A stretch of DNA of 59,911 bases from Candidatus Moranbacteria bacterium UBA2282 (GTDB lineage: Bacteria; Patescibacteriota; Minisyncoccia; Moranbacterales; UBA2206). The notes under the pieces were generated by a model. That model saw nothing but the letters and a program-made list of their open reading frames with translations, did no database searches and was not told where the DNA came from. The stretch is taken from assembly GCA_002345745.1 (NCBI GenBank), contig DDWQ01000021.1, positions 1 through 59,911 on the forward strand, written 5' to 3'. Every line of letters begins with the position of its first letter. Within the stretch, counting starts at the first letter, position 1. Of the stretch, positions 8,501 to 57,529 are shown one piece after another. A program made the position numbers and the translations under genes.

Positions 8501-8962
8501 GTAACTGGAAAAATTGTATTAACTAATGGAAGAACTGGTGAAAAATTTGATAACGCTTCAACTGTTGGAGTGCAATATATTATGAAACTGCATCATTTAG
8601 TGGATGACAAGATTCATATGCGCTCAATCGGACCATATTCTTTAATAACTCAGCAACCTCTTGGAGGAAAAGCTCAGTTTGGAGGACAGCGTTTTGGAGA
8701 GATGGAAGTGTGGGCATTGGAAGGTTATGGTGCAGCTTATACTTTGCAAGAAATGTTAACAATCAAATCAGATGATGTAATGGGCAGAAGCAAAGCTTAT
8801 GAAGCCATCATTAAAGGTGAACCAATAAAGAGTCCAAATCTTCCAACTTCTTTCAATGTACTCGTAAATGAATTGAAGGGATTGGCGCTTAATGTTGAAC
8901 TTATTGGAGTCAGAAAAGAAGAAAATGATGAGGAAGACGAAACATACTCATCAAGGGAATAA
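5549..8962 (+). CDS. rpoB: DNA-directed RNA polymerase subunit beta
   Basis: Clear RpoB motifs (LPNLIEAQLNSY, GRYRLN, RLSAMGPGGL, PEGPNIGL, GRHGNKGV, FGEMEVWALE). The first ATG is 5549. The ORF is open from TTG 5498, which is an alternative start. Confidence 0.95.
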   Translation: MLNAQKTLKIKDTFSSGSSLAKRKFFKKMSFVSLPNLIEAQLNSYDWLLEKGIKELLSEVNPITDFTGKDLELSFEDYYLDEPKYDEVTAKNKNISYEAPIRCKVRLVIKKTGEIKEQEIYLGDFPIMTERGTFIINGVERVVVSQLIRSPGVFFTMNYQKGRRLFGAKIIPNRGAWLEIETDFEGVIYVKIDRKRKVALSSLLRAFGFATDKQLHDIFSDVDKGEISYITETIRKDAAKDQAEGYKEIYKRIRPGDLATAENARQMIDSMFFNFEKYDFGSVGRYRLNQRLETELENTEENRVLLRDDLIAIVKEIMRLNNDPTAQADDIDHLGNRRVRGVGELVQNKLRVGFARMSRNIKDRMSTCDLETVVPGQLVNSRPIAAAIKEFFASSQLSQFMDQVNPLAELEHKRRLSAMGPGGLTRERAGFEVRDVHHSHYGRICPVETPEGPNIGLVGHLATYAKINDYGFLETPYLNVYNEVENTVEKLTSRILREDVAGLTAGTLLTEEMATKIAADKKIKTVKIQPWASHEIEYINATKEDRKTIAHANIKMDEHGNILENIVGARVKGHATEIEAIKLDYIDVSAKQMISVATSLIPFLEHDDANRALMGSNMQRQAVSCVKPQAPLVGTGIEDKAAADSGQVVIAKQAGEVIEVDADHVIVKEEAPVGAKKPYIKREYRLQSFVKSNAFTSMNQVPRVAKGQMIKKGELLADGASTDHGELALGQNILIAFVSWEGSNYEDAIIISEKLVQDDRYSSIHIEDFSIDVRDTKLGAEVITRDIPNIGEERLKNLDETGIIRIGAEVASGDILTGKISPKGEGDLTSEERLLRAIFGEKSRDVKDSSLYLPHGEYGKVVDIKIFSREQGDKLPTGVIQQIQVSVAQLKKISVGDKLAGRHGNKGVISRVAPAEDMPYLPDGTPVDMILNPLGIASRMNIGQILETTLGWAALKLDYKVATPALEGITEEQIRGELTKAELPVTGKIVLTNGRTGEKFDNASTVGVQYIMKLHHLVDDKIHMRSIGPYSLITQQPLGGKAQFGGQRFGEMEVWALEGYGAAYTLQEMLTIKSDDVMGRSKAYEAIIKGEPIKSPNLPTSFNVLVNELKGLALNVELIGVRKEENDEEDETYSSRE

Positions 8963-9050: not shown

Positions 9051-12000
9051 ATGGATCCTATTACTAAAGTAAGTGATTTCAATAGTGTACAACTTAAGCT
9101 GGCCGGTCCAGAGCAAATTTTGGAATGGTCTCACGGTGAAATTACCAAGCCGGAAACAATTAATTATCGGACGCAACGTTATGAGAAAGACGGTCTTTTC
9201 TGTGAAAAAATATTTGGACCATCTCGCGATTGGGAATGTTATTGTGGAAAATATAAACGGATCAGATACAAAGGAATCGTCTGCGATAAGTGCGGTGTGG
9301 AAGTGACTCGTTCCAGCGTGCGTCGAGACAGAATGGGCCACATTCAATTAGCAGTTCCAGTTTCACATATTTGGTTTTTGCGAGGAGTGCCTTCTAAGAT
9401 TGGATTGGCATTGGGAATGAGTCCACAAGAATTAGAAAAAGTTATCTATTTCTCAAATTATATTATTTTGAGTGTTGATGCTAGTGCTCGTGAGAAAGCA
9501 TTGGCTCAATTAGAACAAGAATTCAAAACCAAGCAAAAAGAAATTGCAAAATTAGAAGGCAATGCAAAAGAGAATAAGACAGATGAACTAAAAGGAATCT
9601 ATCGAACTGCCAAAGAAGAGTTGAAAAGTTTGCAAAGATTTCAGATTATAACTGAAGTTGAATATTTTAATTTGTCCACCCGTTATGGGCAAGTTTTTTC
9701 AGCTGGCATTGGTGCAGAGGCTATTCGCAAAATTTTGGAAAATCTAGATGTCAGAGCTGAGATAGATTTGTTGAAAACAGAACTACTTAGTGATGAGACT
9801 ATAGATAAAAAGAAAATTCTGAAAAGAATTAAACTATTTCAAGGTTTTATCAACAACGATTTGCGCTTGGAGTGGATGTTACCGACAGTTATCCCAGTTA
9901 TCCCGCCAGATTTGCGACCAATGGTAGCATTGGACGGTGGCAGATTTGCAACTTCTGATTTAAATGATTTATACCGAAGAATTATTAACCGAAACAATCG
10001 TTTGAGAAAACTGATTGATATTGGAGCACCAGAAGTTATTGCTAGAAATGAAAAAAGAATGTTGCAAGAAGCTGTTGATGCTTTGTTTGATAATAGCGCG
10101 CGTCGTGGTCAAGTAAGTGTTACAGCGTCAACTGGGCAAAGACGGGCTTTGCGATCCTTGGCGGATACTTTGAAAGGAAAGCAAGGTCGTTTTCGACAAA
10201 ATTTGCTTGGAAAACGCGTAGATTATTCTGGACGGTCTGTAATTGTGGTTGGTCCAAAATTGAAATTACATCAATGTGGATTGCCAAAGAAAATGGCATT
10301 GGAACTTTTCAAGCCATTTATCATCAACAAATTGATTGCCAGAGAGCTTGCATATAATGTGCGTAGTGCTGGAAAAATGGTAGAAGGTGAAAGTGAAGAG
10401 GCTTATGAAATTTTGGATGAAATTATTTCCCATCACTATGTGATGCTAAATCGTGCTCCAACTTTGCATAGACTTTCAATTCAAGCTTTTCAACCAGTTT
10501 TAATTGAAGGAAAGGCTATTCAATTACATCCTATGGTTTGTTCCGCTTTTAATGCTGATTTCGATGGAGACCAGATGGCTGTACACGTTCCTTTGACTGA
10601 TAAAGCTCGTTGGGAAAGTGAAAATCTAATGCTTTCAAAGAGAAATTTGTTAAAACCTGCTAGTGGCGAACCGATTATCACACCGACTTTGGATATGGTT
10701 CTTGGTTGCTATTATATTACTCATATTGTAGCTGGGGCTAAGGGTGAGGGTAGAGCATTCTCAAATTTTGATGAAGCTATTATGGCTAATGAATTAGGAC
10801 AAGTTGATGTGCGAGCGGAAGTCAAAGTATTATATGAGGGCAAAGTTCTTGAAACTTCTATTGGCAGAATTAAATTAAATGAAATTATCCCAGAAGGAAT
10901 AAATTATCTTAATCAGGAAATGACCAAAAAAGAATTAAAGCTTTTAGTAGCTAAAGTTCTTGAGGTTAGTGGAGCTGAAGAGACTGCTTTATTTGCAGAT
11001 AAAATTAAAACTCTTGGTTTTGATTCTGTAACTAAATCTGGAATTTCTTGGGGAATGGCTGATTTGAATGTTCCTCCAGAAAAGAAAGAGATTATGGATG
11101 ATTCTGAAAATAAAGTTAACGTTATCAAGCAACAATTCAATATGGGACTCTTAACTGAAGGTGAAAGAAAAAGCCAAGTTATTGAGATTTGGAACAATGC
11201 TAAAAATAAAATCACTGATGCTGTGCGAGCTGGAATGGACAAAGAAGGGTCAGTATATTCAATGGTGTATTCTAAGGCTCGAGGTTCCGAATCAGTTGTA
11301 GTGCAGATGGCTGGTATGAAAGGTTTGATGGCTGGTCCAACAGGAGAAACAATTGAATTGCCGATTAAGAGTTGTTTCAAAGAAGGTTTAAACGTGTTGG
11401 AATATTTTATTTCTACTCATGGAGCAAGAAAGGGAATGGCTGATACTGCTCTTCGAACAGCTACGGCAGGTTACCTTACACGAAGACTAGTGGATGTTTC
11501 ACAAGATATTATTATCCGAGAAGAAGACTGTAAAGACAAACAAGGATCAATTTTGTATAAAGAAGATTCTGATCGAATTGGGCAGAGCTTTGCTAGCCGT
11601 ATCATCGGAAGAGTTGCACTAGAAAACATTGTTGATCCAAAATCAGGAGAAGTTCTTGCTAAAAAGGGCGATCTTCTGAACAAGGAGCAAGGTGAAGCTA
11701 TTGAAACAGCTAATGTCGCACAGATTAAAATCCGATCCCTAGTTTCTTGCAAAACCCCGCGTGGAGTTTGTCAGAAATGTTATGGACTTGATCTTGGACG
11801 TGGTCATTTGGTGCAAATGGGTCAAGCAGTTGGAATTGTGGCAGCTCAAGCTATTGGTGAGCCAGGAACACAGTTGACGATGCGTACCTTCCATGTTGGA
11901 GGTGTTGCGGGAACTGATATTACCCAAGGTTTGCCTCGTGTAGAAGAAATTTTTGAAGCACGACCACCGAAGGGAGAGGCAGTTATTTCTGAAGTAGCTG

Positions 12001-21385: not shown

Positions 21386-21586
21386 ATGAGCAAAATATAT
21401 CGTGTAAAAGATGTTTCTCAAATTATAGATCGTGATAAGACGACACTTTTTCGGTGGGAAAGGGAAGGCAAGATAGCGCATCCACAAAGAGATAGTCGTG
21501 GATGGAGAATTTATACAGAGACTGATTTGGCTAGGATGAGGCAAATTATAAGCTGTCAGTCATTTAATCTCACTAGCGGACAATAA
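21386..21586 (+). CDS. Stand-alone MerR/excisionase-type helix-turn-helix protein (66 aa)
   Basis: YRVKDVSQIIDRDKTTLFRWEREGKI..P.RDSRGWRIYTETDLARMRQI matches the MerR N-terminal HTH. There is no effector domain. Confidence 0.7.
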   Translation: MSKIYRVKDVSQIIDRDKTTLFRWEREGKIAHPQRDSRGWRIYTETDLARMRQIISCQSFNLTSGQ

Positions 21587-21592
21587 TCTAGA

Positions 21593-24500
21593 TTGGATAA
21601 AAATAAAAAAGTGATCAAAAATAAAAAAGATGTTAATGCAAAAAAAGAAACAGAAAAGAAAGATTGCAAAAACATCCAAGATAAAAACAAAAAAATAATT
21701 ACAAAATCTTACTTAGCCAGAAATGGAAAGCAGGAAGATTCAAAGCATCTTGTTTTGGGTGATTTTTTTGCTAATTATGAAGTTAAAGATAAAAAAAGTT
21801 TCGGTAAAAACTATTACAGACGCAAGAGATGGATTTGGCTAGGCTTAATTATAGAAAAATCTTTTAATTTTATTTATAATAACAGTTTGCGACTAGCTGG
21901 TGTTATTTTGCTAATCGCTTTGGCTCTAGGATTAATACCTGGTGTTCTAAGCGCTCCAAACTCAGTTTTTATTACTGCCAAAGATGAGTGGGAGGCTGGT
22001 ATGTTGACAAATATTGATACAGAAAGCACTGCTGATGCTATTCAACTAAAATCAGATGGAACTTGGAATGCTCGAACTTGGGCACCAACACCGGACACTA
22101 TTTCATTTGGATCATCTTCAGTAATGGTAGATAACTACCTTTATGTTACTCGAGGTTATGCTGATAAATCTTTTTATCGTTATGATGCGGGTGAAAATAA
22201 ATGGGATATTTTGGCTGATCTGCCACAAGCCACCCATTACGGTTGTGATTTGTCCTATGATGGAATAGGAAATATCTATTTTATCTTTGGAGGATTTTCG
22301 AAAGAGTTTTATAAATACAATATAGAAGATGAGGAATGGACTAAATTACCTGACCTTTTGGATACTGTGTATACTGGTGCTTCAATTGAGTTTGATGGAA
22401 CTGATATGTTTGTAACTCGGGGACAATCTTTCTCTGATTTTTGGAGGTTTGATATCTCTGAAAATATGTGGTATGGAATAAATCCAATTCCCGCTACTTT
22501 AACAAGTGGTGCTGATATGGTATACGGCAATAATGGTTATATGTATATAACTCGAGGATCAGGCACAACGACTTTTTATCGCTATAATATCGCGGCTAAT
22601 AATTGGGTGGCGGCTCCAGCGATAACTGCTTCTTCAGTGGCACTTACGGGTGAACAAAAGGGAGTTTTTTATAATGGTTATATTTATTTCTTGGTTTCCA
22701 ATAACACTACTACTTTTTTGCGCTATAGCATCGCTGGCAATAGTTGGACCACTCTAGCTACAGCGCCGCAAACTAATAATTTATCGTCACTAACCTTTAA
22801 TCCAGCGGATAATCTTATCTACGCAATTCGAGGTGGAGCAACATATAATTTATGGAAATTTGATCCTAATTCTGGTGCAACAGGAGCATGGGTCGGACCA
22901 GCAGACTTGCCTGGTGCAGTGGGTACGGGAGGAGATTTTATTTGGAATAAAGTAACTGGGGCAGGGGCGTATGTTTATGCGCTAAGAGGAGCCTCTAATA
23001 GCTTCTATCGTTATGATATTACGGCTAATACTTGGACAACTATGGGCAATGCACCAACAAGTTTTAGCTATGATACTAAGGGAACATATTACAATGGAAA
23101 TTTTTATATTCCACTGGGAAACAATACTACTGCTTTTTATATTTATAATGTAGCTGGGAATTCTTGGAGCACAGCCAGCACAACAGGATTGGGAACATTG
23201 GGTTATGGTAGTGCGGCAATTTATAATAGTGGGGATGGTTATATTTATGTAACTCGAGGAAATGCGACTAATACACTTTACCGCTACAATATTGCTGGTA
23301 ATAGTTGGACCACTATGACGGGAGCCTCTATTGCTGGCGGAGCTAGTTATCAGGCATATGTAGGAAGTCGCTTAGAATCTGATGGAACTAACCTTTATAT
23401 GATGCCGGGGGACGGTGAGACAGCATTTCTAAAATATAATGTTGGAGCTAATACTTGGACCGAGTTAACTCCTACTTCTTTTGCTCAAAATTATGGAACA
23501 GATATGTCCTATTATGATGGCAAGATTTATGCACTAGCGGGATATTATAAGGATGAGACTTGGGAATATACTATTGCCACTAACTCTTGGAGATTACTTC
23601 CAGCCAATCAAAAATATGTCTATGAAAGAGGACCGTACAATGGAGCATCTCTTGAATATATGGGAAATAATTCTTTTTTGGCTACCCCTGGATTTGGATT
23701 GGTGGATGTGTGGAGCTATACGATTGGAACAAATAACTATATTAATAGTGGAAGCTATATAAGTGAAGAGATTGATTTAGCTTATGTTTCTTCTTGGATT
23801 TCTTTGACGGTTAATCAAAATACACCAGCCAATACTAGCATAATAACTGAAACCAGAACTAGTAGCGATGGAGAAAGTTGGTCAAATTGGGAGACTTTAA
23901 GCGGAGTGGATATTCAATCTAATGAAAATCGCTATATTCAAGTTAAATTTACTTTAGGAACGACTGATGGAATAAACACCCCAACCATTTATGATTATAC
24001 TATTTCTTATAATAGTGAAGATAATGATCCTGATAATGCTACTACAATTAATGCTTCTTCTCAGAGAATAGGCGGAACAGCTATTTCTAGTGGGGTTGCA
24101 TATAAACATGCTCATCCATATTTTACTTGGAATGACGCAATTGATAGTGGCTCAGGTATAAATGGCTATTGGGTTTATTTTGGAACCAACGAAAGTGCTG
24201 ATCCAGAAATAGATGGAAGTTATGTGACAAATCCAGAATATTTAGTTAACACAGCGATGAATAATGGAAATTATTATTTGAGAATTAAAACTAAAGATAA
24301 TGATGGTAATGTTAGTGATAATGCTTGGGAGGCTTTTACTTATAACTATTCGGGAGTCTCACCATATCTAACTGAAGAGAAAACAAGTGAAGCAGATTTT
24401 CAAGCTGGAGTTATGGATAAGATAAGTGCTAAAAGTGATGGATCGTTTAGACTAAATTCAATCAGTGGTTTTTGGAATGAAAAAAGATTGTCTTATGCAC

Positions 24501-25162
24501 CAGCCGGATTTCGTTATGGCTCTAGATTAGCCTATGTGGAATCAAGTAATAAAATCTATGTCCTTAATGGAAATAATAGTACAGTTTTCTATTCTTATGA
24601 TATAGCGACTGATGTTTGGTCTACTCTACAACCAGCACCATTGACAGTTTATTATGGAAGTTTCTTAGTAGCTGGTCCTGCTGGTTATCTTTATGCTACA
24701 CGGGGAGCTAATCAATCAGATTTTTGGCGTTATAATATTGTGGATAATACTTGGGAGTCAGTAAGTAACGCCTCTAAAGTTTTTACTTATGGTGGGTCTT
24801 TGCAATATGATGGCAGTCGTTATATCTATGGTTTGCCTGGAAATGATGATGCCTTTTATCGTTATGATACTCAAAATAATGTTTGGAGTAATTTAGAAAA
24901 TGCAGAATTTGGCAATCCTAATGAAAGTGATGGACAAAGAGTTTACGAGGGTTCTTACACAGCTTACGACAATAGTGATACTATCTTTGCTTTGCAAGGA
25001 AATAATTATCCTTATTTTTCAAAGTATTCTATTAGTACTGGTCACTGGTCAATATTAGAAAAAGCCCCCGTAGGAGTATATGAAGGAGGAACAATTACTT
25101 ATGATCCTAATACTCAGGCAGTGTATATGCTCAGTGGTAAATATCGTCAAAATTTCTTTTAA
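21593..25162 (+). CDS. Giant cell-surface protein, N-terminal segment: TM anchor, Kelch-type beta-propeller blades, beta-sandwich, FN3-like domain, second propeller (truncated by TAA)
   Basis: TTG start 6 nt after the HTH gene. TM helix LAGVILLIALALGLIPGVLSA. About 16 blades with the F[YW][RK][YF][DN]xxxNxW pattern. It ends at an in-frame TAA inside a blade. Confidence 0.8.
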   Translation: MDKNKKVIKNKKDVNAKKETEKKDCKNIQDKNKKIITKSYLARNGKQEDSKHLVLGDFFANYEVKDKKSFGKNYYRRKRWIWLGLIIEKSFNFIYNNSLRLAGVILLIALALGLIPGVLSAPNSVFITAKDEWEAGMLTNIDTESTADAIQLKSDGTWNARTWAPTPDTISFGSSSVMVDNYLYVTRGYADKSFYRYDAGENKWDILADLPQATHYGCDLSYDGIGNIYFIFGGFSKEFYKYNIEDEEWTKLPDLLDTVYTGASIEFDGTDMFVTRGQSFSDFWRFDISENMWYGINPIPATLTSGADMVYGNNGYMYITRGSGTTTFYRYNIAANNWVAAPAITASSVALTGEQKGVFYNGYIYFLVSNNTTTFLRYSIAGNSWTTLATAPQTNNLSSLTFNPADNLIYAIRGGATYNLWKFDPNSGATGAWVGPADLPGAVGTGGDFIWNKVTGAGAYVYALRGASNSFYRYDITANTWTTMGNAPTSFSYDTKGTYYNGNFYIPLGNNTTAFYIYNVAGNSWSTASTTGLGTLGYGSAAIYNSGDGYIYVTRGNATNTLYRYNIAGNSWTTMTGASIAGGASYQAYVGSRLESDGTNLYMMPGDGETAFLKYNVGANTWTELTPTSFAQNYGTDMSYYDGKIYALAGYYKDETWEYTIATNSWRLLPANQKYVYERGPYNGASLEYMGNNSFLATPGFGLVDVWSYTIGTNNYINSGSYISEEIDLAYVSSWISLTVNQNTPANTSIITETRTSSDGESWSNWETLSGVDIQSNENRYIQVKFTLGTTDGINTPTIYDYTISYNSEDNDPDNATTINASSQRIGGTAISSGVAYKHAHPYFTWNDAIDSGSGINGYWVYFGTNESADPEIDGSYVTNPEYLVNTAMNNGNYYLRIKTKDNDGNVSDNAWEAFTYNYSGVSPYLTEEKTSEADFQAGVMDKISAKSDGSFRLNSISGFWNEKRLSYAPAGFRYGSRLAYVESSNKIYVLNGNNSTVFYSYDIATDVWSTLQPAPLTVYYGSFLVAGPAGYLYATRGANQSDFWRYNIVDNTWESVSNASKVFTYGGSLQYDGSRYIYGLPGNDDAFYRYDTQNNVWSNLENAEFGNPNESDGQRVYEGSYTAYDNSDTIFALQGNNYPYFSKYSISTGHWSILEKAPVGVYEGGTITYDPNTQAVYMLSGKYRQNFF
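25160..25162 (+). other. In-frame TAA interrupting the giant surface-protein reading frame
   Basis: The flanking ORFs share one frame. The codon occupies the K/R position of the blade consensus (QNFF-TAA-YDVTSNTW). Confidence 0.9.
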
Positions 25163-25192
25163 TATGACGTTACTTCTAATACTTGGACGGAG

Positions 25193-28100
25193 ATGCCAAT
25201 GATTCCTGCTTATGTTGGTTATGGAGGATCATTAAAGGCAGCAGGAGGATATATTTACGCTATTCGAGGAGAAGCGTCCAATGCTTTTTATAAGTTTAAC
25301 CTAGATGAAAATTCATGGGAAGTTCCGCAAAAAGGTTTTTTTGGTCCAGCTGATACTGGTGGAGGAAGTAGCTTTGGTTTTAGTTACGGAACAAACATAG
25401 TCAAGGACCAAAGTGATAATATTTATATAGTAAGGGGAAACAGCGATAATACTTTCGGAAAATATAATTATCAAACTGGAGAATTTACTAAACTAGCCAA
25501 AACGCCAGTGGGAATTTATAGAGATTCTGCGATAGTATATAACGAAGACGATGGTGCAATTTATCTTACTCCTGGAGGAATTAGGACTACCCGAACAGGC
25601 GGTGTTAATAACTATTTCTTAAAATACACAATCGCTAGCAACAGTTGGGAAATTATTACTACTGATAGAATTCCACTGCAAACTGGGGCAGGATCTAGAA
25701 TGACCTATGATGGCAGTCGCTACATTTATCTAACTCGTGGAACTGCGGGAAGTAATAATTGGTGGAGATATGACACTACTGCAGTTGCTGGATCACGCTG
25801 GTCAGCCTTACTTCCAACAATTTTAAACTGGAATCAGGGAGATGGTTCAAGCATTCTCTATAAGGATGGATATATTTATTCAACTCGAGCTCAAAATCAG
25901 AATACTTTCTGGCGTTATGATGTAGTCGCTGGAACTTGGTTGCAGAGAGCTAATACATTAGCCACAATTGGAATTGGATCGTCTTTGTCTGATGGTGGCG
26001 ATGGATATCTATATTTAACTCGAGGAATTAATACTAATATTTATTATCGCTATAATATAACTGGGAATAGTTGGGAGGCTGTGGCTGACATTCCAGGACA
26101 AGTTAATATTGGAGGTGTTGGAGAATCAGCAGGCAATAGAATCTGGTCAACCGTAGGAAACGGAACTAACTCTTATCCAGATGGTTTGTATAGTTATGTG
26201 GTTGGCTCCGAAGCTAATGGAACAGCTTTCGAAAAAAGAGGAAATTATGTTTCCGAATCAATTGACCTAATCTCAGTTTATAGATGGGCTAATCTAGACA
26301 TTGATTATTCTAAGCCAGCGGGAACAAGTGTTAATATTTATACGCGAACTTCCAATAACCAAACTGATTGGTCAACTTGGGATTTGGTAAATAATGAAAA
26401 ATACTTTGGAGACAACCATTATAATTATGGCATAGTTAGCCCTGCTAATAAATATATTCAAGTTAAAATTGATTTATTTTCGGGTGATCAAATATTCTCG
26501 CCATCAGTAACTGATTATAAGATTAATTATTATCAAGACACATTAGCTCCAAGTAATCCAACTGCTCTGAGTGCTTATAGTGCTTCTGATAAGGTAACCT
26601 TGATTACTTCTGGTTCTTGGTATGCTCATACTACACCTTATTTTGAATGGCCAGCTGATGAGTTAACTGGTGGAGCAAGCGATGGGGTGGGTGGTTCAGG
26701 CGTTGCTGGTTATTGGGTTTATTTTGGAACTGATGTTAATGCTAATGCTTTTATTGACGGCTCTTATCAGACGACTACAAATTATACAGCTAGCGGTCTA
26801 ACTCCTGGAGAAACATATTATCTAAAAATAATTGCTATTGATAATGCAGGAATGTTTGGAGCTACAAGCTATGATGCATTTAGCTATAAGCTTGATAATA
26901 TCGCTCCAACAAATCCAACAGAAACTTCGGTGACACCAGCTGGATTTACAGCGATTGATAGTTATTCTTTTCTTTGGAATTCCAATGCTGTCGACAGCCA
27001 ATCGGGTATTGCAAAATTCCAATATCGTACCGATGGTGATGTGGCAGATGTTTGGTATGATATTTCTGACACACAAACTGTTTCATTATCGCTACCAAAC
27101 GAAAATCACCCTGTTGGAGCATACCAATCAGGGAAAAATAAATTGTATTTGCGAGTTGTGGATAATGCAGGAAATGTTTCAATCCCAATTACACAGGATT
27201 ATTATTTTAGTGCCAGTGCGCCATCACCACCAAATGATTTAGTGGCTTCTCCTGAATATTCTTTGTCCAATTTCTTTTCTTTTTCTTGGAACGCCCCATC
27301 ATCTTTTGTCGGTGAGTCAAGCAAGCTAAAATATTACTATTCTATCAATACTTTACCAACAGCTTATAATACAGTCGAAACTGGATTAACTTTTGCTGGT
27401 CCTGGTCCATTTGCCACCCAAAAAGGTCCAAATCATTTCTATATAGTAGCTAAAGATGAGGCAGAAAATATAGATTATAGTCTTTATGCTTCTGTAGAAT
27501 TTGCAGCAGATACTTCTTCTCCTGGTGCACCGGTAAATGTTCAAATTTTTGATACTTCCGATCGAGGAAATGAAGCCTATAGTGCTGCCTTGAAATGGGT
27601 CACTCCAAGTGGTGTTGATGCAAATAATTTTGCTGGCTATGTTATTTATCGCTCAGTGGATAATATTAATTTCACTCAAGTTGCTATAACCTCCGGAACA
27701 GCCTATGTAGATTCTGATCTGGAAAGCAAGCTGTATTATTATTATGTAAAAGCCAAGGATCTTACTAATAATCTTTCAATTGCATCAACGACAGTTTCTC
27801 TGACTCCAACTGGAAAATATACTTCACCGCCTCTTTTGGTGGGCGAACCAAAATTTACTGTTCAATCATTTGCAGCCAATTTTACCTGGGCAACTAATCG
27901 TATTGCTAGTTCGTTTGTGGAATATGGCAAGACAATCAGCTTGGGAGAGACTAATGGACAAATTGACTCAATGACTGATCATACAGTTGATTTGAAAGGG
28001 CTGAGTGCAGGTACAAAATATTTTTATCGTGTCAAATATATCGATCAAGATGGAAATATTGGAACTTCAGACATCAGTAATTTTACAACATTGCCACCAC

Positions 28101-29017
28101 CTGTCATTTCAGAAGTTATTGTTTCAGAAATTACTTTGACTAGTGCAATTGTTTCTTGGAAAACTAATAGTAGTGCTATTTGCAGTTTGAAATATGGCAA
28201 TAATGTCATCGAAGAAACTTCCAGTGGCGCAAATCATATTGAAAAGATAGAAGGCTTAGTTGCATCTGCTAGCTATAGTTATGAAGTTAATTGTGTGGAT
28301 GGAGAATTGAATTCTTTTTCTTCAGATCAATATAGTTTTTCAACTCCCCAAGAACCATTAGCTTCTAATGTTACAGTTGAAAATAAAGACAATGTTGATT
28401 TGCCAACAGTCGTTGTTAATTATGATACAAACGTAGAGACAACTACATTGGTCTATTTCAAATCTCCAGATGAAAATGAACAACATACTTTTTTGCTGGC
28501 TGAAAAAACAACTACTCACCAAGCTGAACTGCAAGGACTTGACCCGGCTAAAGAATATACGATTTCTGTGACAGGTGTTGATGAAAATGGAATTTATATT
28601 AAAGCGATTGATCAAAAAATAACCACCCGTTCTGATTCAAGGCCGCCTGAAATTATTACTAATCGGGCAATTGGAAAAACAAGTGGTCGTGGAGATAGTG
28701 CACAGGCCAATATGTATATTAAGATTGAAACGGATGAAGCCACGAAAGTTAAAGTTTTTTATGCTGAAGGTATCGTGGTTGCTAATTTCGAACAATCAAC
28801 TTCCGAAGACGCCAGCAATACATATCATTTGGTGACTATTCCAGTAAAAGCCGGACAGGTGTATAGTTATAAGGTAGAGACTTATGATGAAGCTAGAAAT
28901 ATAACTACAACTGAAACAGCTAGTGTGATTGTTGGAAATGCTAAAGCAAGTGCTACAGAAGTGATCACAGGAACATTCGCTGAGCGTTTTGGTTGGTTAA
29001 CAAAAGTATGGAATTAG
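25193..29017 (+). CDS. Giant cell-surface protein, C-terminal segment: remaining propeller blades, beta-sandwich, several FN3 / purple-acid-phosphatase-N-like domains
   Basis: The frame is open from 25163 in the same phase as 21593-25162. There is no signal peptide of its own. FN3-like units include PGAPVNVQIFD...YYYYVKAKD and FTWATN...YFYRVKYID. Confidence 0.75.
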   Translation: MPMIPAYVGYGGSLKAAGGYIYAIRGEASNAFYKFNLDENSWEVPQKGFFGPADTGGGSSFGFSYGTNIVKDQSDNIYIVRGNSDNTFGKYNYQTGEFTKLAKTPVGIYRDSAIVYNEDDGAIYLTPGGIRTTRTGGVNNYFLKYTIASNSWEIITTDRIPLQTGAGSRMTYDGSRYIYLTRGTAGSNNWWRYDTTAVAGSRWSALLPTILNWNQGDGSSILYKDGYIYSTRAQNQNTFWRYDVVAGTWLQRANTLATIGIGSSLSDGGDGYLYLTRGINTNIYYRYNITGNSWEAVADIPGQVNIGGVGESAGNRIWSTVGNGTNSYPDGLYSYVVGSEANGTAFEKRGNYVSESIDLISVYRWANLDIDYSKPAGTSVNIYTRTSNNQTDWSTWDLVNNEKYFGDNHYNYGIVSPANKYIQVKIDLFSGDQIFSPSVTDYKINYYQDTLAPSNPTALSAYSASDKVTLITSGSWYAHTTPYFEWPADELTGGASDGVGGSGVAGYWVYFGTDVNANAFIDGSYQTTTNYTASGLTPGETYYLKIIAIDNAGMFGATSYDAFSYKLDNIAPTNPTETSVTPAGFTAIDSYSFLWNSNAVDSQSGIAKFQYRTDGDVADVWYDISDTQTVSLSLPNENHPVGAYQSGKNKLYLRVVDNAGNVSIPITQDYYFSASAPSPPNDLVASPEYSLSNFFSFSWNAPSSFVGESSKLKYYYSINTLPTAYNTVETGLTFAGPGPFATQKGPNHFYIVAKDEAENIDYSLYASVEFAADTSSPGAPVNVQIFDTSDRGNEAYSAALKWVTPSGVDANNFAGYVIYRSVDNINFTQVAITSGTAYVDSDLESKLYYYYVKAKDLTNNLSIASTTVSLTPTGKYTSPPLLVGEPKFTVQSFAANFTWATNRIASSFVEYGKTISLGETNGQIDSMTDHTVDLKGLSAGTKYFYRVKYIDQDGNIGTSDISNFTTLPPPVISEVIVSEITLTSAIVSWKTNSSAICSLKYGNNVIEETSSGANHIEKIEGLVASASYSYEVNCVDGELNSFSSDQYSFSTPQEPLASNVTVENKDNVDLPTVVVNYDTNVETTTLVYFKSPDENEQHTFLLAEKTTTHQAELQGLDPAKEYTISVTGVDENGIYIKAIDQKITTRSDSRPPEIITNRAIGKTSGRGDSAQANMYIKIETDEATKVKVFYAEGIVVANFEQSTSEDASNTYHLVTIPVKAGQVYSYKVETYDEARNITTTETASVIVGNAKASATEVITGTFAERFGWLTKVWN

Positions 29018-29712
29018 AAAAAAATATAAAAATAAAAGTACAGGGAGTGAAAAAGACTTTTAGTGTTGGTGAAAATGACACGACTATTTTGCATGGTATT
29101 GACTTTGAAATTAAAAAAGGCGAATTCGCTTTGCTTGTTGGTCCATCCGGATGTGGCAAGTCGACATTGTTGCATATAATTTATGGTTTGGAAAATCCAA
29201 CAGAGGGAAATATTATTATTGATGGAGAAGATATTTGGAATAAATCAAAAGATTGGCGAGCTAATTTTAGGAATAAATATATAGGATTTATTCCACAACA
29301 AGCCTTTTGGATAAAATCATTGAGTGTTATTGAAAATATTGCCATTCCAGGAGTTATCGCTGGGATGTCTTTTCATGAAATTATTCCTAAAGCTGCACAA
29401 CTAATAGAATTGGTAGGTATGGAAAAATGGGCAGATCATCGCCCATATGATTTGTCCGGAGGACAGCAACAACGCATTGCCTTGGCGCGTGCATTGCTGT
29501 TGGATCCGAGCTTGATTATTGCAGATGAACCAACGGGTAATTTGGACCAAAAGGCAGGGGATGAATTAATGAGTTTGCTGGCAGATATAAATAAAAAATT
29601 CGCTTTGACAATTGTAATGGTAACTCACAATATGTCGCAGTATGATTTTGGGACTAAAATTATAAATATGGTGGATGGAAAAATTGTTGAAACTGTTAAA
29701 AAACAAAAATAA
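29008..29712 (+). CDS. ABC transporter ATP-binding protein (MacB/LolD/FtsE-like)
   Basis: Walker A GPSGCGKST, signature LSGGQQQRIALARAL, Walker B IIADEPTGNLD. ATG 29008 overlaps the giant gene's stop (ATGGAATTAG). The ORF is open from TTG 28993. Confidence 0.85.
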   Translation: MELEKNIKIKVQGVKKTFSVGENDTTILHGIDFEIKKGEFALLVGPSGCGKSTLLHIIYGLENPTEGNIIIDGEDIWNKSKDWRANFRNKYIGFIPQQAFWIKSLSVIENIAIPGVIAGMSFHEIIPKAAQLIELVGMEKWADHRPYDLSGGQQQRIALARALLLDPSLIIADEPTGNLDQKAGDELMSLLADINKKFALTIVMVTHNMSQYDFGTKIINMVDGKIVETVKKQK

Positions 29713-29724
29713 TTGTGTATTAAA

Positions 29725-31014
29725 ATGCAAATAAAAGAAATAAAAAATAAAATAATACATAGCCTTTTCGGACGTAGAGAGAATATCGGCAAGAGAATGC
29801 GATATTCGGTTATAATACTGATTAGTTATCGCAATATTGCGGCGAATAAATTTAGGTCTGTTTTGACTATTGGTGGAGTGGCTATTGGAATTGCTATTAT
29901 AACCTTTTTGATTTCAATTGGTTTTGGTGTCCAGCTAATGGTAGTTGACGCAATAACCAAAAGTAATCCGATATCAATCATTGATATTAAAAATGACAAT
30001 CTGGAAAATTTTATCGTTATAAGCGATGAAATGATGGACAAGATAAAAAATATTGAAGGTGTTTCAAAAATAGAGCGTCTGGAGGAATTAGGTGGAAAAT
30101 TCTATAATAATGATTCAAAAGTTGACTCTGTGTTGCTGGGTGTCTCTAAGGAATATCTTAAATTGGCACAATTGAAATTGAGTTATGGAAGTCTAGATTA
30201 TTCCGATAATGAAGAATATTTATTGATCACTCCTAAACTAGCAATGCTTTTGGGCTTTGAAAATCCTGCAGACGCAATTGGCAAGGAAGTGGAATATGAG
30301 ACTATTGTGTCTAAAGAAATTATGGATAAAGACTTTAAAGTTGAAAAACTTGATCGAGAAAAAATAAAAATCGTAGGTGTTGTGGATGATGATGCTAATA
30401 ATAACAATTCTATTTATGCCTATACAATGGCGGAGCATCTAAAAAATAAATTTGGTGTAAATGCTGGACAATCTGGAAAAGTTGAAGTAAAAAATGATTC
30501 TAATTTGGAGGATATTCGTTCAAAAATTGAACAATTAGGTCTGACCACAGAGAGTGTCAGTGATACGATTGTTAGCGTAGAAGCTTTTTTTGGAATTATT
30601 AGTATTGTGATGGTTGTGTTTGGAACAATTATTATGTCAATTTCAGCTATGGGAATGCTAAACACATTGAGCGTTTCGTTATTGCAAAGAACTCGAGAAG
30701 TTGGAATTTTGAAGGCACTGGGAGCTAAGCGGGCGGATGTTTTCAAGATGTTTATTCTTGAAGCGGTTATAATCAGCTTTTCCGGAGGTGCAATAGGCAT
30801 TCTTTCTGGATTTGGATTTGCAAAACTTATAAACTGGTCTTTTAATTATTTTGCGTATAAGCGAGGTGCTCAAATTTCTGACTTTATTGATATGCCATAT
30901 TATTTCTTAATTTCTATTGGTGTTTTTATTGTCGTTTTGGGACTGGTTACTGGCATTATGCCAGCCAGACGCGCTTCTGTGACTCATGCACTGGATGCTT
31001 TGCGATATGAGTAG
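29725..31014 (+). CDS. ABC transporter permease, FtsX/MacB type, with a large extracytoplasmic domain
   Basis: N-terminal TM helix (FRSVLTIGGVAIGIAIITFLI), a ~230-aa extracytoplasmic domain and a C-terminal 3-TM FtsX domain (REVGILKALGAKR). Alternative starts at 29713 (TTG) and 29797. Confidence 0.8.
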   Translation: MQIKEIKNKIIHSLFGRRENIGKRMRYSVIILISYRNIAANKFRSVLTIGGVAIGIAIITFLISIGFGVQLMVVDAITKSNPISIIDIKNDNLENFIVISDEMMDKIKNIEGVSKIERLEELGGKFYNNDSKVDSVLLGVSKEYLKLAQLKLSYGSLDYSDNEEYLLITPKLAMLLGFENPADAIGKEVEYETIVSKEIMDKDFKVEKLDREKIKIVGVVDDDANNNNSIYAYTMAEHLKNKFGVNAGQSGKVEVKNDSNLEDIRSKIEQLGLTTESVSDTIVSVEAFFGIISIVMVVFGTIIMSISAMGMLNTLSVSLLQRTREVGILKALGAKRADVFKMFILEAVIISFSGGAIGILSGFGFAKLINWSFNYFAYKRGAQISDFIDMPYYFLISIGVFIVVLGLVTGIMPARRASVTHALDALRYE

Positions 31015-42431: not shown

Positions 42432-43463
42432 ATGGAAAATAATAAATCACAAATTGTTATATACAAAGATCAAAGTGGTCAAACTAAGATTGATGTTCGG
42501 TTTGACGGCGATACTGTTTGGCTTTCGCAAAAGCAAATGGCGAAATTGTTTGATTGCAGCGTGGATAATATTAGCTTGCATTTAAAAAATATCTTTAAAG
42601 AGGCTGAATTAAGCGAAAAATCAGTTGTCGAGGAATCCTCGATAACTGCGGTGGATGGGAAGAAATATGATGTGAAACATTATAATTTGGATGCAATAAT
42701 TTCTGTTGGTTATAGAATAAATTCTAAGCGTGGCACACAATTTCGTATTTGGGCAACTCAAAAACTGAAAGAATTTATCCTTAAAGGCTTTGTGTTGGAT
42801 GATGAGCGATTGAAAAATCCAGATTTGCCATTTGATTATTTTGAAGAATTGACTCGTCGCATCGCGGACATCCGCACTTCAGAAAAAAGATTTTATCGAA
42901 AAATTACTGACATTTACGCTACTAGTATTGATTATGATCCGACAGATGAAAAGAGTATTCTTTTTTTTAAAACAGTTCAAAATAAAGTTCACTATGCGAT
43001 TACTGGAAATACGGCGGCAGAAATTGTAATTAATAGAATGGATAGTAATAAGAAGAATTTGGGTCTGACAAATTTTAGGGGTGCTAAGCCAACAAAAGAA
43101 GAGATAATAATTGCTAAAAATTATTTAAGCGAGCAGGAGCTTCTTGTCTTGAATAATCTTGTAGAACAATATCTTGTATTTGCCCAAGGGCAGGCAATGC
43201 AGAGAGTCCCAATGACAATGAATGACTGGATAGAAAAATTACACGGATTTTTGGCTATCAATGATAGAAATATTTTGCAAGATGCAGGTAAGATATCACA
43301 TGAATTGATGGTGGAAATTGCAGGAAGAAAATTTGAGGAGTATAAAAAAATCGAGGCAACAGAAGATACTGATTTTGATGCGGTTGTATTAGATACAATT
43401 GAAAACGCAAAAAATAAATTAAAACTAGGTGATAAAAAATTGAAAAATAAAGCTCGGAAGTAA
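42432..43463 (+). CDS. RhuM family (virulence-associated) protein
   Basis: IVIYKDQSGQTKIDVRFDGDTVWLSQKQMAKLFDCSVDNISLHLKNIF ... ISVGYRINSKRGTQFRIWAT is the RhuM signature. Confidence 0.8.
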   Translation: MENNKSQIVIYKDQSGQTKIDVRFDGDTVWLSQKQMAKLFDCSVDNISLHLKNIFKEAELSEKSVVEESSITAVDGKKYDVKHYNLDAIISVGYRINSKRGTQFRIWATQKLKEFILKGFVLDDERLKNPDLPFDYFEELTRRIADIRTSEKRFYRKITDIYATSIDYDPTDEKSILFFKTVQNKVHYAITGNTAAEIVINRMDSNKKNLGLTNFRGAKPTKEEIIIAKNYLSEQELLVLNNLVEQYLVFAQGQAMQRVPMTMNDWIEKLHGFLAINDRNILQDAGKISHELMVEIAGRKFEEYKKIEATEDTDFDAVVLDTIENAKNKLKLGDKKLKNKARK

Positions 43464-57101: not shown

Positions 57102-57120
57102 AACTCGCTAAGCGTTTTTG

Positions 57121-57529
57121 TGGAGATGATGGGAATCGAACCCATGTCCAAAATCGTCCATCTAAAACAATCTACAAGCTTAGTCTATCTATTGGATTTG
57201 AATGAGAGGTGATAGATAAACAAAACCCTCTCAATCTATTCCTAATGTAGTTTTATCAAATCAACTTAGAAAATATTGAAGTGACTATCCTGATTTTATG
57301 ACACCAAGATCCGCCTATCAGGAGTTGACGGTTTGATGACTACGGCTTTCTCGCGAAGCGAGAGTTAGGCTGTAGCAACCGCAAAATTTGAAGTAAATGC
57401 TTGCGCAAATACTGATTTTGCTTTTGTTATGAAGTTTGCACTTATAACTTTGATGAACGATTAATGAGGAGATCATCATTCTCAGCTTGCATATTTTAAA
57501 TGTACAATCTGTCGAAACCAGGCATCCCC
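57121..57529 (-). ncRNA. ssrA: tmRNA (SsrA)
   Basis: 5' GGGGAUGCCUGGUUUCGAC..., 3' ...GGGUUCGAUUCCCAUCAUCUCCA. The acceptor stem has a G3-U pair. The tag ORF GCA AAC ... GCC TAA (57439-57365) encodes ANFITKAKSVFAQAFTSNFAVATA. CCA is not fully encoded. Confidence 0.9.

Follow-up and report, generated by a model that had tools for sequence, protein, structure and literature searches.

A premature in-frame stop codon in a predicted giant Kelch-propeller gene of a Moranbacteria genome, probably a recent nonsense mutation

A single in-frame TAA interrupts a gene of 2,474 sense codons on contig DDWQ01000021.1 of Candidatus Moranbacteria bacterium UBA2282, a stretch of 59,911 nucleotides that is referred to below as the window. 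We consider this stop most probably a recent and real nonsense mutation that has produced a nascent pseudogene or null allele (probability roughly 0.8), an ordinary event rather than a new coding mechanism. The gene is predicted to encode a membrane-anchored giant protein of Kelch propellers and FN3 domains. Under the proposed course of events, the A at position 25160 would have become T, turning lysine codon 1190 from AAA into TAA in an otherwise intact and strongly conserved gene.

One gene and its internal stop

Translation of positions 21593-29017 on the forward strand yielded 2,474 sense codons and one internal TAA, which at 25160-25162 (codon 1190) is the sole stop between the TTG at 21593 and the terminal TAG at 29017. 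The first-pass annotation had described two same-frame open reading frames (ORFs) parted only by this codon, and translation confirmed it: the upstream ORF (21593-25162) begins at TTG and encodes 1189 aa, the downstream ORF (25193-29017) begins at ATG and encodes 1274 aa, and both share one frame. Around the stop, positions 25145-25180 read CGT CAA AAT TTC TTT TAA TAT GAC GTT ACT TCT AAT, or RQNFF*YDVTSN, and the junction peptide on read-through would be QNFF[K/Q/Y]YDVTSNTWTEMPMIPAYVGYGGSLK. The TTG start agrees with the orthologue N-terminal consensus MxxKNKK. The locus and its neighbors comprise the following features:

21386-21586, forward strand: small MerR-family gene directly upstream (Pfam MerR_1, E = 1.4e-12)
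21593-29017, forward strand: whole ancestral gene (single in-frame stop; single-ORF orthologues; TTG start, TAG end)
25160-25162, forward strand: premature TAA, then T (AAA, Lys, to TAA by A-to-T at 25160)
25193-29017, forward strand: downstream ORF as gene callers have it (1274 aa), not an independent gene (ATG in blade 5; no leader; no signal)
29008-31014, forward strand: MacB/FtsEX/LolCDE-type ABC transporter (Pfam ABC_tran, MacB_PCD and FtsX; NCBIfam matches)

The read-through product is matched over 95-100% of its length by more than 100 single-ORF orthologues of 2,370-2,670 aa, which come from Moranbacteria and other Patescibacteria. Because homology to them runs unbroken across the stop, the pattern is not a matter of chance, and the earlier reading of one gene of about 2,470 codons stands. 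An orthologue alignment, which the first-pass annotation had called for, showed that all 120 listed sequences read through and that none terminates at this site: the residue is K in 79, R in 34 and another sense residue in 7, with no stop codon at the position of codon 1190 in any of the 120. That a single AAA-to-TAA change would suffice had also been proposed, and the nearest orthologue bears this out: it has TTC TTT AAA TAT in place of the window's TTC TTT TAA TAT, with identical flanking codons; AAA also occupies the position in 10 of the 18 loci examined. Two other same-frame ORF pairs in the window that are split by one stop, the ABC ATPase/permease pair (29710-29712) and RhuM/UvrB (43461-43463), proved to be complete, unrelated genes. 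A cluster look-up of both halves led to an unrelated cluster represented by a 55-aa Arthrobacter protein and was set aside as a database artefact.

Stop-codon usage in the window is conventional. Among the 46 ORFs that reach 150 aa or more, 25 end in TAA, rpoB among them, and the standard code therefore applies; TAG and TGA also serve as stops, and this usage rules out an alternative genetic code. TAA followed by U is a strong terminator, and TAA-T is the most efficient termination tetranucleotide in E. coli. Programmed recoding, in which the TAA would be read through or suppressed at a useful rate to give full-length and truncated proteins by design, is consistent with a downstream frame of 1,284 codons that is fully open and under purifying selection, and with the overlap between the end of the giant ORF and the start of the ABC ATPase, which suggests translational coupling. 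The intact downstream frame, however, is explained equally well by a recent mutation, and the stop is conserved in 0 of the 120 orthologues, belongs to the commonest genuine terminator class in the window and sits in the context TAA-T. Nor was a stimulatory fold detected, as the 141 nt at 25140-25280 fold like shuffled sequence (z = -0.03); the gene contains no Rfam match, and a search for suppressors found no tRNA gene within the window. Established cases of programmed read-through likewise pair an in-frame stop with a long conserved open frame; the window's stop differs from them in being unconserved in relatives, in the strong context of its UAA, in its lack of structure and in its unaltered code. 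Read-through, one of the causes entertained in the first-pass annotation, finds no support, given the absence of stops in orthologues, the normal use of TAA as a terminator and the lack of a downstream fold, and we judge recoding highly improbable.

Predicted architecture and the place of the stop

The predicted protein includes the following parts along the chain:

21887-21961, forward strand: only transmembrane or signal-anchor helix (aa ~99-123; Kyte-Doolittle 2.69 at aa 101-119)
22085-23752, forward strand: first block of ~12 Kelch blades (aa ~165-720; Pfam Kelch_6 104.3 bits, Kelch_1 86.2 bits)
23765-24367, forward strand: putative beta-sandwich and FN3-like module between the propeller blocks (aa ~725-925; sequence inspection, conserved alignment columns)
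24515-26212, forward strand: second block of 12 Kelch blades, modeled as two six-bladed propellers (aa ~975-1540; AlphaFold2 model of a segment of orthologue P0001)
26693-29014, forward strand: C-terminal FN3-rich stalk with a conserved tail ...FGWxxxLW (aa 1701-2474; Pfam fn3 51.5 bits)

A Lys-rich N-terminal tail (encoded at 21593-21886) precedes the helix, which lies upstream of the stop and is the sole membrane anchor; no further segment, downstream of the stop included, exceeds 1.5 on the Kyte-Doolittle scale. The first Kelch block, with 11 motif matches at 44-51 aa spacing, probably forms two six-bladed propellers. Between the blocks, 23765-24367 has no Pfam match, and its beta-sandwich/FN3-like character is suggested by inspection and by conserved alignment columns. 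In the downstream half, Kelch_6 (34.7 bits) and PF00041 fn3 (51.5 bits) both score above threshold, the Pfam cut-offs being 25.3 bits for Kelch_6, 20.1 for Kelch_1 and 25 for fn3 (PF00041). A motif scan for the blade signature F[YW][RK]Y[DN]..N.W returned 20 clear and 4 degenerate copies, in two sets of ~12 blades at aa ~170-720 and ~960-1540.

The stop falls within one such signature, FF[*]YDVTSNTW. Its structural position was modeled on a segment of P0001, which is 87-89% identical; the alignment behind the model also contained both pieces from the window. The AlphaFold2 model (mean pLDDT 83) consists of 12 blades of four strands each, blades 6 and 7 being joined by a linker of low confidence, and K246 of P0001, the equivalent of the stop, lies in the strand at 244-248. 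The model thus assigns the stop to blade 5 of the third of four six-bladed Kelch propellers, where it interrupts the third strand. A Foldseek search with the model matched tandem propellers (E ~1e-15) and a designed six-bladed Kelch propeller (TM-score 0.75). The earlier claim that the stop splits a repeated blade consensus is therefore backed by both the motif scan and the structure model.

This geometry bears on whether the two ORFs could be a stable functional split, that is, an anchored N-terminal protein cooperating with a separately initiated C-terminal one. Two CDSs are indeed called, an ATG stands 31 nt past the stop, and the N-terminal product retains the complete first propeller pair. 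According to the model, however, the cut falls in a beta-strand inside a blade, so that neither fragment would carry a closed third propeller, and the downstream product has no signal or transmembrane segment, while 0 orthologues are divided at the stop site. The ATG at 25193 is the first one downstream and lies in the same blade as the stop. The A-rich leader that marks 17 of 17 real gene starts is missing from the sequence before it, cgttacttctaatacttggacggag. The GGAG ahead of ATG 25193/25199 was rejected as a Shine-Dalgarno site for re-initiation, as 0 of 17 real starts in this genome use such a motif and GGAG is simply part of codons ACG GAG (Thr-Glu). The methionines at the downstream starts fall within the usual orthologue variation (L/M, M/I/K/Q). 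The first-pass annotation had noted that the downstream half has neither signal peptide nor transmembrane helix and that its first ATG is inside a blade; both observations hold, with hydropathy at or below 1.5 and ATG 25193 in blade 5. A functional split is accordingly an extremely improbable account of the locus.

Origin and age of the stop

Identical DNA (100%), including the TAA, is present in contigs of ENA ERZ27315057, JGI 3300040971 and Logan SRR1313257. The downstream ORF is present in six contigs and the upstream ORF in four, and these contigs may share one site or overlapping read sets. Recovery of the same TAA in six contigs from three listed assembly sources makes an assembler error unlikely. 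An artefact would mean that the organism carries AAA and that the T is a sequencing, consensus or assembly error in a repeat-rich gene; the gene does encode an internally repetitive protein, and error-like lesions do occur in other MAG versions, including a scaffold gap at locus L029 and a frameshift at 2.7x coverage at L120. Against this, the same base emerges from different pipelines (MEGAHIT-style k141 at ENA, JGI and Logan), and the lesion is a substitution, not a homopolymer-length error. No 21-mer of the 127 bases preceding the site recurs elsewhere in the window, which makes misassembly through repeats unlikely, and the other long genes of the window, rpoB, rpoC, ftsK and uvrB, are intact. 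We therefore rate an artefact as very unlikely. The first-pass annotation had offered four candidate causes, among which a recent nonsense mutation, probably still polymorphic, is favored, whereas consensus or assembly error is opposed by the six identical contigs from three listed sources.

The hint of polymorphism comes from the end of the JGI contig, where T25160 is the 128th base and is preceded by a unique 127-mer spanning 25033-25159. The standard JGI workflow, assumed to apply to sample 3300040971, uses metaSPAdes with k up to 127, and a distance of 127 bases is the signature of a graph fork at the mutated base, which hints that the site is still polymorphic. A fork or coverage drop at 25032 would be the alternative source of this coincidence, and the chance of the exact distance is about 1 in several thousand. 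The TAA allele thus probably coexists with an intact allele in at least one sampled population. Searches for an intact allele of the same species found none, whether by scanning metagenome and genome collections for exact 29-mers that left the mutated base open (N), by a protein-pattern scan of metagenomes (best match 86% identity) or by a full-length protein search (best match 75-76% identity).

Coexisting alleles raise the question of an on/off population switch, in which a null allele of a surface adhesin would be reversible or kept in balance, akin to phase variation. In its favor are the JGI contig-end signature, which points to two alleles at the mutated base, and the independent disruption of the same gene in other lineages; yet the site, TTCTTTTAATATG, contains no simple-sequence tract or invertible element (longest run T4), a transversion offers no reversible high-frequency switch, and the alternative allele has never been directly seen. 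Such a switch is very unlikely.

Among genome loci the gene is a single ORF in 75 of 79, among metagenome loci in 34 of 36, and lesions comparable to the window's stop affect about 4% of orthologous loci in other MAGs. Those in other species comprise a CAG-to-TAG change in blade 1 (L013) and frameshifts at L075, L077 and L120, the last on a contig of 2.7x coverage; L029 is interrupted by a scaffold gap. Independent lesions in at least three other species suggest that some conditions make the protein dispensable or select against it.

Several measures place the nonsense mutation in the recent past. Over the 510 codons past the stop, identity to P0001 is 85%, the same as upstream, and dN/dS is 0.069, compared with 0.071-0.113 upstream. 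At columns conserved at 90% or more, the window deviates at 3 of 200 positions upstream of the stop and at 5 of 325 beyond it, rates that also occur among intact orthologues. No second stop or frameshift occurs in the 1,284 downstream codons, where 5% of possible substitutions would make a stop; the absence of any further stop there limits neutral divergence since the mutation to less than ~1.5%. Because the downstream part shows neither relaxed selection nor a second lesion, the mutation is recent: these two signs of an old pseudogene are absent, and the pattern is compatible with a nascent one.

Decay of an old pseudogene was also considered as the source of a ~13% excess divergence of the downstream half, and rejected, as sliding windows confined the excess to aa 1701-2474. 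It starts 500 codons beyond the stop. Within this region the window protein is ~60% identical to its nearest relatives, which share 85-90% among themselves, and its best match is P0021, from another clade, at 69%. Judging from these alignments, the divergent C-terminal part appears to be a mosaic or recombination feature unrelated to the stop, not decay.

Consequences, neighboring genes and known systems

If the nonsense mutation is real, ribosomes would be expected to terminate at the TAA-U. The product would be a membrane-anchored protein of 1,189 aa that keeps the first Kelch propeller pair and the first beta-sandwich/FN3 module and breaks off within blade 5 of the third propeller, at strand 3. 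The truncation would remove the remainder of that propeller and the whole of the fourth, together with a second beta-sandwich, the FN3 stalk and the conserved tail at the C-terminus. Translation begun at ATG 25193 or 25199 would yield a product that lacks a signal peptide and would presumably remain cytoplasmic. The allele would thereby be a null or a severely truncated form.

The gene's surroundings are conserved to differing degrees. The ABC transporter consists of an ATPase (29008-29712), whose first 10 nt coincide with the last 10 of the giant gene, and a permease (29725-31014); in all 62 orthologous loci (62 of 62) whose downstream flank extends 2.5 kb or more, such a pair follows directly on the same strand. 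This synteny suggests a functional link between the giant protein and the transporter. The upstream MerR gene is also found upstream of P0001 and, overall, at 9 of 64 loci. Given the overlap between the end of the giant gene and the start of the transporter, losing translation 3.9 kb upstream might be costly. The overlap leaves some room for selection keeping the downstream ORF translated.

A broader possibility is that the TAA allele is maintained beside an intact one, or is leaky or re-initiated, and so switches off or shortens a giant host-contact protein at the population level in an episymbiotic Patescibacteria lineage, the recurrent disruptions elsewhere reflecting the same selection; we think this quite unlikely. 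The closest known parallels are ordinary nonsense-mutation pseudogenes or null alleles of bacterial genomes, unitary pseudogenes that are annotated as adjacent same-frame CDSs, in which one base change likewise turns a conserved sense codon into a normal stop, orthologues are intact and two 'hypothetical proteins' are annotated. Unlike ordinary pseudogenes, the lesion in the window is young, with no second lesion and no downstream rise in dN/dS, and it affects an unusually long gene of 7.4 kb in an uncultured Patescibacteria lineage, with a hint of coexisting alleles.

The predicted protein shares motifs and four-stranded blades with Kelch propeller proteins (Kelch_1/Kelch_6), and its fold matches six-bladed and tandem propellers, groups that include the designed SAKe proteins and LRP6 respectively. 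It differs from known Kelch proteins in having ~24 blades in four propellers on one bacterial membrane-anchored chain, interleaved with beta-sandwich/FN3 modules. NCBIfam holds no named family for it, all relatives being annotated 'hypothetical', and literature searches on the sample accessions and on Kelch proteins in Patescibacteria found nothing relevant. With extracytoplasmic partners of type VII ABC systems (for example FtsEX with PcsB/EnvC) it has in common its place next to a MacB-type ATPase and to a permease that has a periplasmic core domain, and the start/stop overlap, but no sequence similarity to known FtsEX/MacB partners was found.

Two public 'hypothetical proteins' are thus halves of one gene, and a disrupted-CDS flag is warranted. 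More broadly, a long, conserved surface-protein gene of Patescibacteria can be knocked out in a natural population. The gene family itself is of greater interest than the stop. Its members are uncharacterised chains of ~2,500 aa that combine four propellers with an FN3 stalk, and across Moranbacteria and Microgenomates they are without exception coupled to a MacB-type ABC transporter. If the population could be followed over time, a natural null allele would be a helpful tool.

An in-frame stop reproduced across assemblies

Translated across 21593-29017 on the forward strand, the giant gene comprises 2,474 sense codons and a single internal stop at codon 1190, where 25145-25171 reads CGT CAA AAT TTC TTT TAA TAT GAC GTT. 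The first-pass annotation had described two same-frame ORFs split by one TAA, and every checkable detail of that description proved correct on translation of the window.

Features of the locus
21593-25162, +, upstream ORF, TTG start, 1189 aa
25160-25162, +, in-frame TAA
25193-29017, +, downstream ORF, ATG start, 1274 aa, same frame as the upstream ORF
26693-29014, +, FN3-rich C-terminal third of the giant protein, aa 1701-2474
28913-29014, +, C-terminal end of the giant protein, aa ~2441-2474
29008-31014, +, ABC ATPase and MacB_PCD/FtsX permease
57118-57529, -, tmRNA gene

The window (GC ~36%) is identified as bacterial chromosome by rpoB, rpoC, ftsK, ychF, recA, ribosomal protein genes, uvrB and the tmRNA (Rfam 157 bits; tag peptide ANFITKAKSVFAQAFTSNFAVATA). 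Its 46 ORFs of 150 aa or more end in TAA (25), TAG (16) or TGA (5), indicating that the standard code holds and that TAA is the preferred stop. Same-frame ORF pairs parted by one TAA also occur at 29710-29712 (ABC ATPase/MacB permease) and 43461-43463 (RhuM/UvrB); because these are complete, unrelated genes, same-frame adjacency alone is no proof of a split gene.

Six contigs encode the downstream product (1274 aa) exactly, and four do so for the upstream product (1189 aa).

Contigs carrying the TAA
ENA ERZ27315057, 61.4 kb, 100% identical to the window over 23.8 kb
JGI 3300040971, 34.9 kb, 100% identical over 14.0 kb
Logan SRR1313257, 8.8 kb, 100% identical over 8.8 kb

The same base was thus reproduced by different assemblers, from samples that are possibly not independent, and the 127 bases ahead of T25160 share no 21-mer with the rest of the window, making misassembly driven by repeats unlikely. 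On these grounds we regard an artefactual TAA as very improbable.

The JGI contig (Ga0242423_001355, loci L002/L086) ends at window 25033, and the T of the TAA is its base 128, with exactly 127 bases ahead of it. The standard JGI workflow runs metaSPAdes at k = 33, 55, 77, 99 and 127 (bioRxiv 10.1101/2020.09.30.320929). A contig that starts with a 127-mer and has the mutated base as its first private base looks like the product of a k = 127 graph fork, if this sample was assembled by that workflow. The same contig start would follow from a fork or a break in coverage one base before it, and the 127-base distance would then be a coincidence of about one in several thousand. The pattern is suggestive of another allele, in the simplest case the ancestral AAA, coexisting in sample 3300040971; that the two states form an adaptive on/off polymorphism is unlikely.

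One ancestral gene

The read-through product, used as a protein query, matched 298 sequences at E <= 1e-20. The best 120 of these measure 1,603-2,672 aa (mostly 2,370-2,670 aa), and nearly all align as single polypeptides at 39-76% identity over 95-100% of the query; the closest relatives lie in MAGs named Candidatus Moranbacteria/Moraniibacteriota and Parcubacteria group. Within this best 120, every protein has a sense residue opposite the stop (K 79, R 34, S 4, E 1, Q 1, N 1) and none terminates at codon 1190. At the DNA level, the nearest orthologue, P0001 (contig JBAZSW010000003), reads TTC TTT AAA TAT against TTC TTT TAA TAT in the window, and AAA occupies the stop position in 10 of 18 loci examined, so that one A-to-T transversion at 25160 accounts for the stop. 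The earlier proposals of a single ancestral gene, and of a stop at a K/R position reached by one AAA-to-TAA change, are therefore supported.

Databases name the giant protein 'hypothetical protein', and we found no NCBIfam model for it. The window's own two halves (P0121/P0122) are missing from the homologue list because the protein collection, when clustered at 90%, misfiles them under an unrelated 55-aa Arthrobacter representative, a database artefact. Many of the contigs bearing orthologues (L014, L017, L040, L057 and others) belong to MAGs under names such as Melioribacter, Bdellovibrionales, Gammaproteobacteria and Weeksellaceae, probably through mis-binning or mislabelling of Patescibacteria contigs.

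Programmed read-through is a remote prospect: no stop occurs at this position in the best 120 of the 298 matches, the TAA is followed by T, which is the strongest termination context in E. coli, the 141 nt around the stop have a fold no more stable than that of shuffled sequence (z = -0.03), and no Rfam element was found in the gene. The window contains no tRNA genes. At most a background level of near-cognate read-through is to be expected.

We also rejected the downstream ORF as an independent gene, since it bears no sign of an evolved start and its product would have no export signal. As first described, its ATG at 25193 lies within a blade, the same blade 5 that holds the stop. The 17 real gene starts near the locus (16449-38858) have A/T-rich leaders and all are without a Shine-Dalgarno motif, so that SD-led initiation seems not to operate in this organism; the DNA ahead of ATG 25193 is ordinary coding sequence, and the GGAG before it is formed by codons ACG GAG (ACA GAA in P0001). 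At the ORF's two Met positions, orthologues carry L/M and M/I/K/Q. A functional split into two genes is the remotest of the alternatives.

Age of the mutation

Over the whole downstream half, the window is 70% identical to its three nearest relatives (P0001-P0003), which are 82-85% identical to one another. Pseudogene decay was rejected as the cause, because sliding windows confine the excess to aa 1701-2474, where the window is ~60% identical to the three relatives (mutually 85-90%) and closest, at 69%, to P0021 of another clade. Conserved columns are retained in this segment, giving the appearance of module exchange rather than decay; from sequence comparison, the C-terminal module looks mosaic. 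Its boundary lies ~500 codons past the stop and bears no relation to it.

Identity to P0001 is 85% over the first 510 codons past the stop, the same as in the upstream regions, and the dN/dS of this stretch is 0.069, compared with 0.071 and 0.113 in the two upstream segments (dS is saturated, so these values are meaningful only segment against segment). Of the columns with at least 90% conservation in a set of 35 orthologues, 5/325 downstream and 3/200 upstream differ in the window, and the range shown by intact orthologues includes these values. Although 5% of possible single-base changes in the 1,284 downstream codons create a stop, none is present, which bounds neutral divergence since inactivation at less than ~1.5% and makes the mutation young compared with the divergence from the nearest relative known. 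Together, these results favour a recent nonsense mutation, one of the causes first put forward. We assign a probability of about 80% to a real, recent change of A to T at 25160, converting codon 1190 from AAA to TAA and yielding a truncated or null allele that is possibly still segregating.

Consequences for the protein and its locus

Pfam matches Kelch motifs on either side of the stop and fn3 downstream of it, and blade motif spacing resolves two blocks of ~12 blades, in line with the roughly two dozen first counted. In a hydropathy scan of the read-through product, the sole segment of membrane-helix grade is aa 101-119, behind a Lys-rich tail; none lies past the stop, as had been noted of the downstream half. 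We modelled the equivalent 626-aa segment of P0001, whose alignment took in both window pieces (mean pLDDT 83). The model resolves into 12 blades of four strands each, and the linker joining blades 6 and 7 is of low confidence. Its structural neighbours include the tandem propellers LRP6 and Aip1 and a designed Kelch propeller with six blades (TM-score 0.75 across 300 columns). The stop-equivalent Lys (residue 246) falls in strand 244-248, the third of blade 5, matching the mid-blade position first proposed, and the truncated product is predicted to stop within the third of four propellers. Missing from it would be ~1,285 residues, the FN3 stalk and the C-terminal tail among them. That tail (consensus ...FGWxSxLW) is kept family-wide and could serve in sorting or docking.

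Directly after the giant gene, on the same strand, the MacB/FtsEX/LolCDE-type transporter pair follows in all 62 loci with enough flank, and is conserved over Moranbacteria and Microgenomates (loci L007-L085). The ATPase ATG at 29008 overlaps the TAG that ends the giant gene (29015-29017), and the overlap is 13 nt in P0001; adjacency and overlap together imply a conserved uncharacterised three-gene module. Giant gene and ATPase are probably translationally coupled, and termination 3.9 kb upstream may reduce transporter expression too.

Among GTDB species representatives, 75 of 79 orthologous loci hold a single ORF that spans 95% or more of the match, and 34 of 36 metagenome loci are intact.

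Loci set apart from the intact orthologues
L013, 6667-6669, CAG to TAG in the conserved LPQPAxYG of blade 1
L075, ~8820-8890, frameshift
L077, ~11355-11415, frameshift
L029, scaffold gap
L120, metagenome locus, ~2690-2870, frameshift, 2.7x coverage
L122, metagenome locus, distant relative, 30%

The lesions in L013, L075, L077 and L120, which arose independently in other species' copies, may be real or assembly errors. Point disruption of this 7.4-kb gene is seen in about 4% of assemblies, to which the stop in the window adds one more case. The original observation and its single-gene reading thus stand, but the event itself is ordinary; it befell a gene family that is uncharacterised yet widely conserved.
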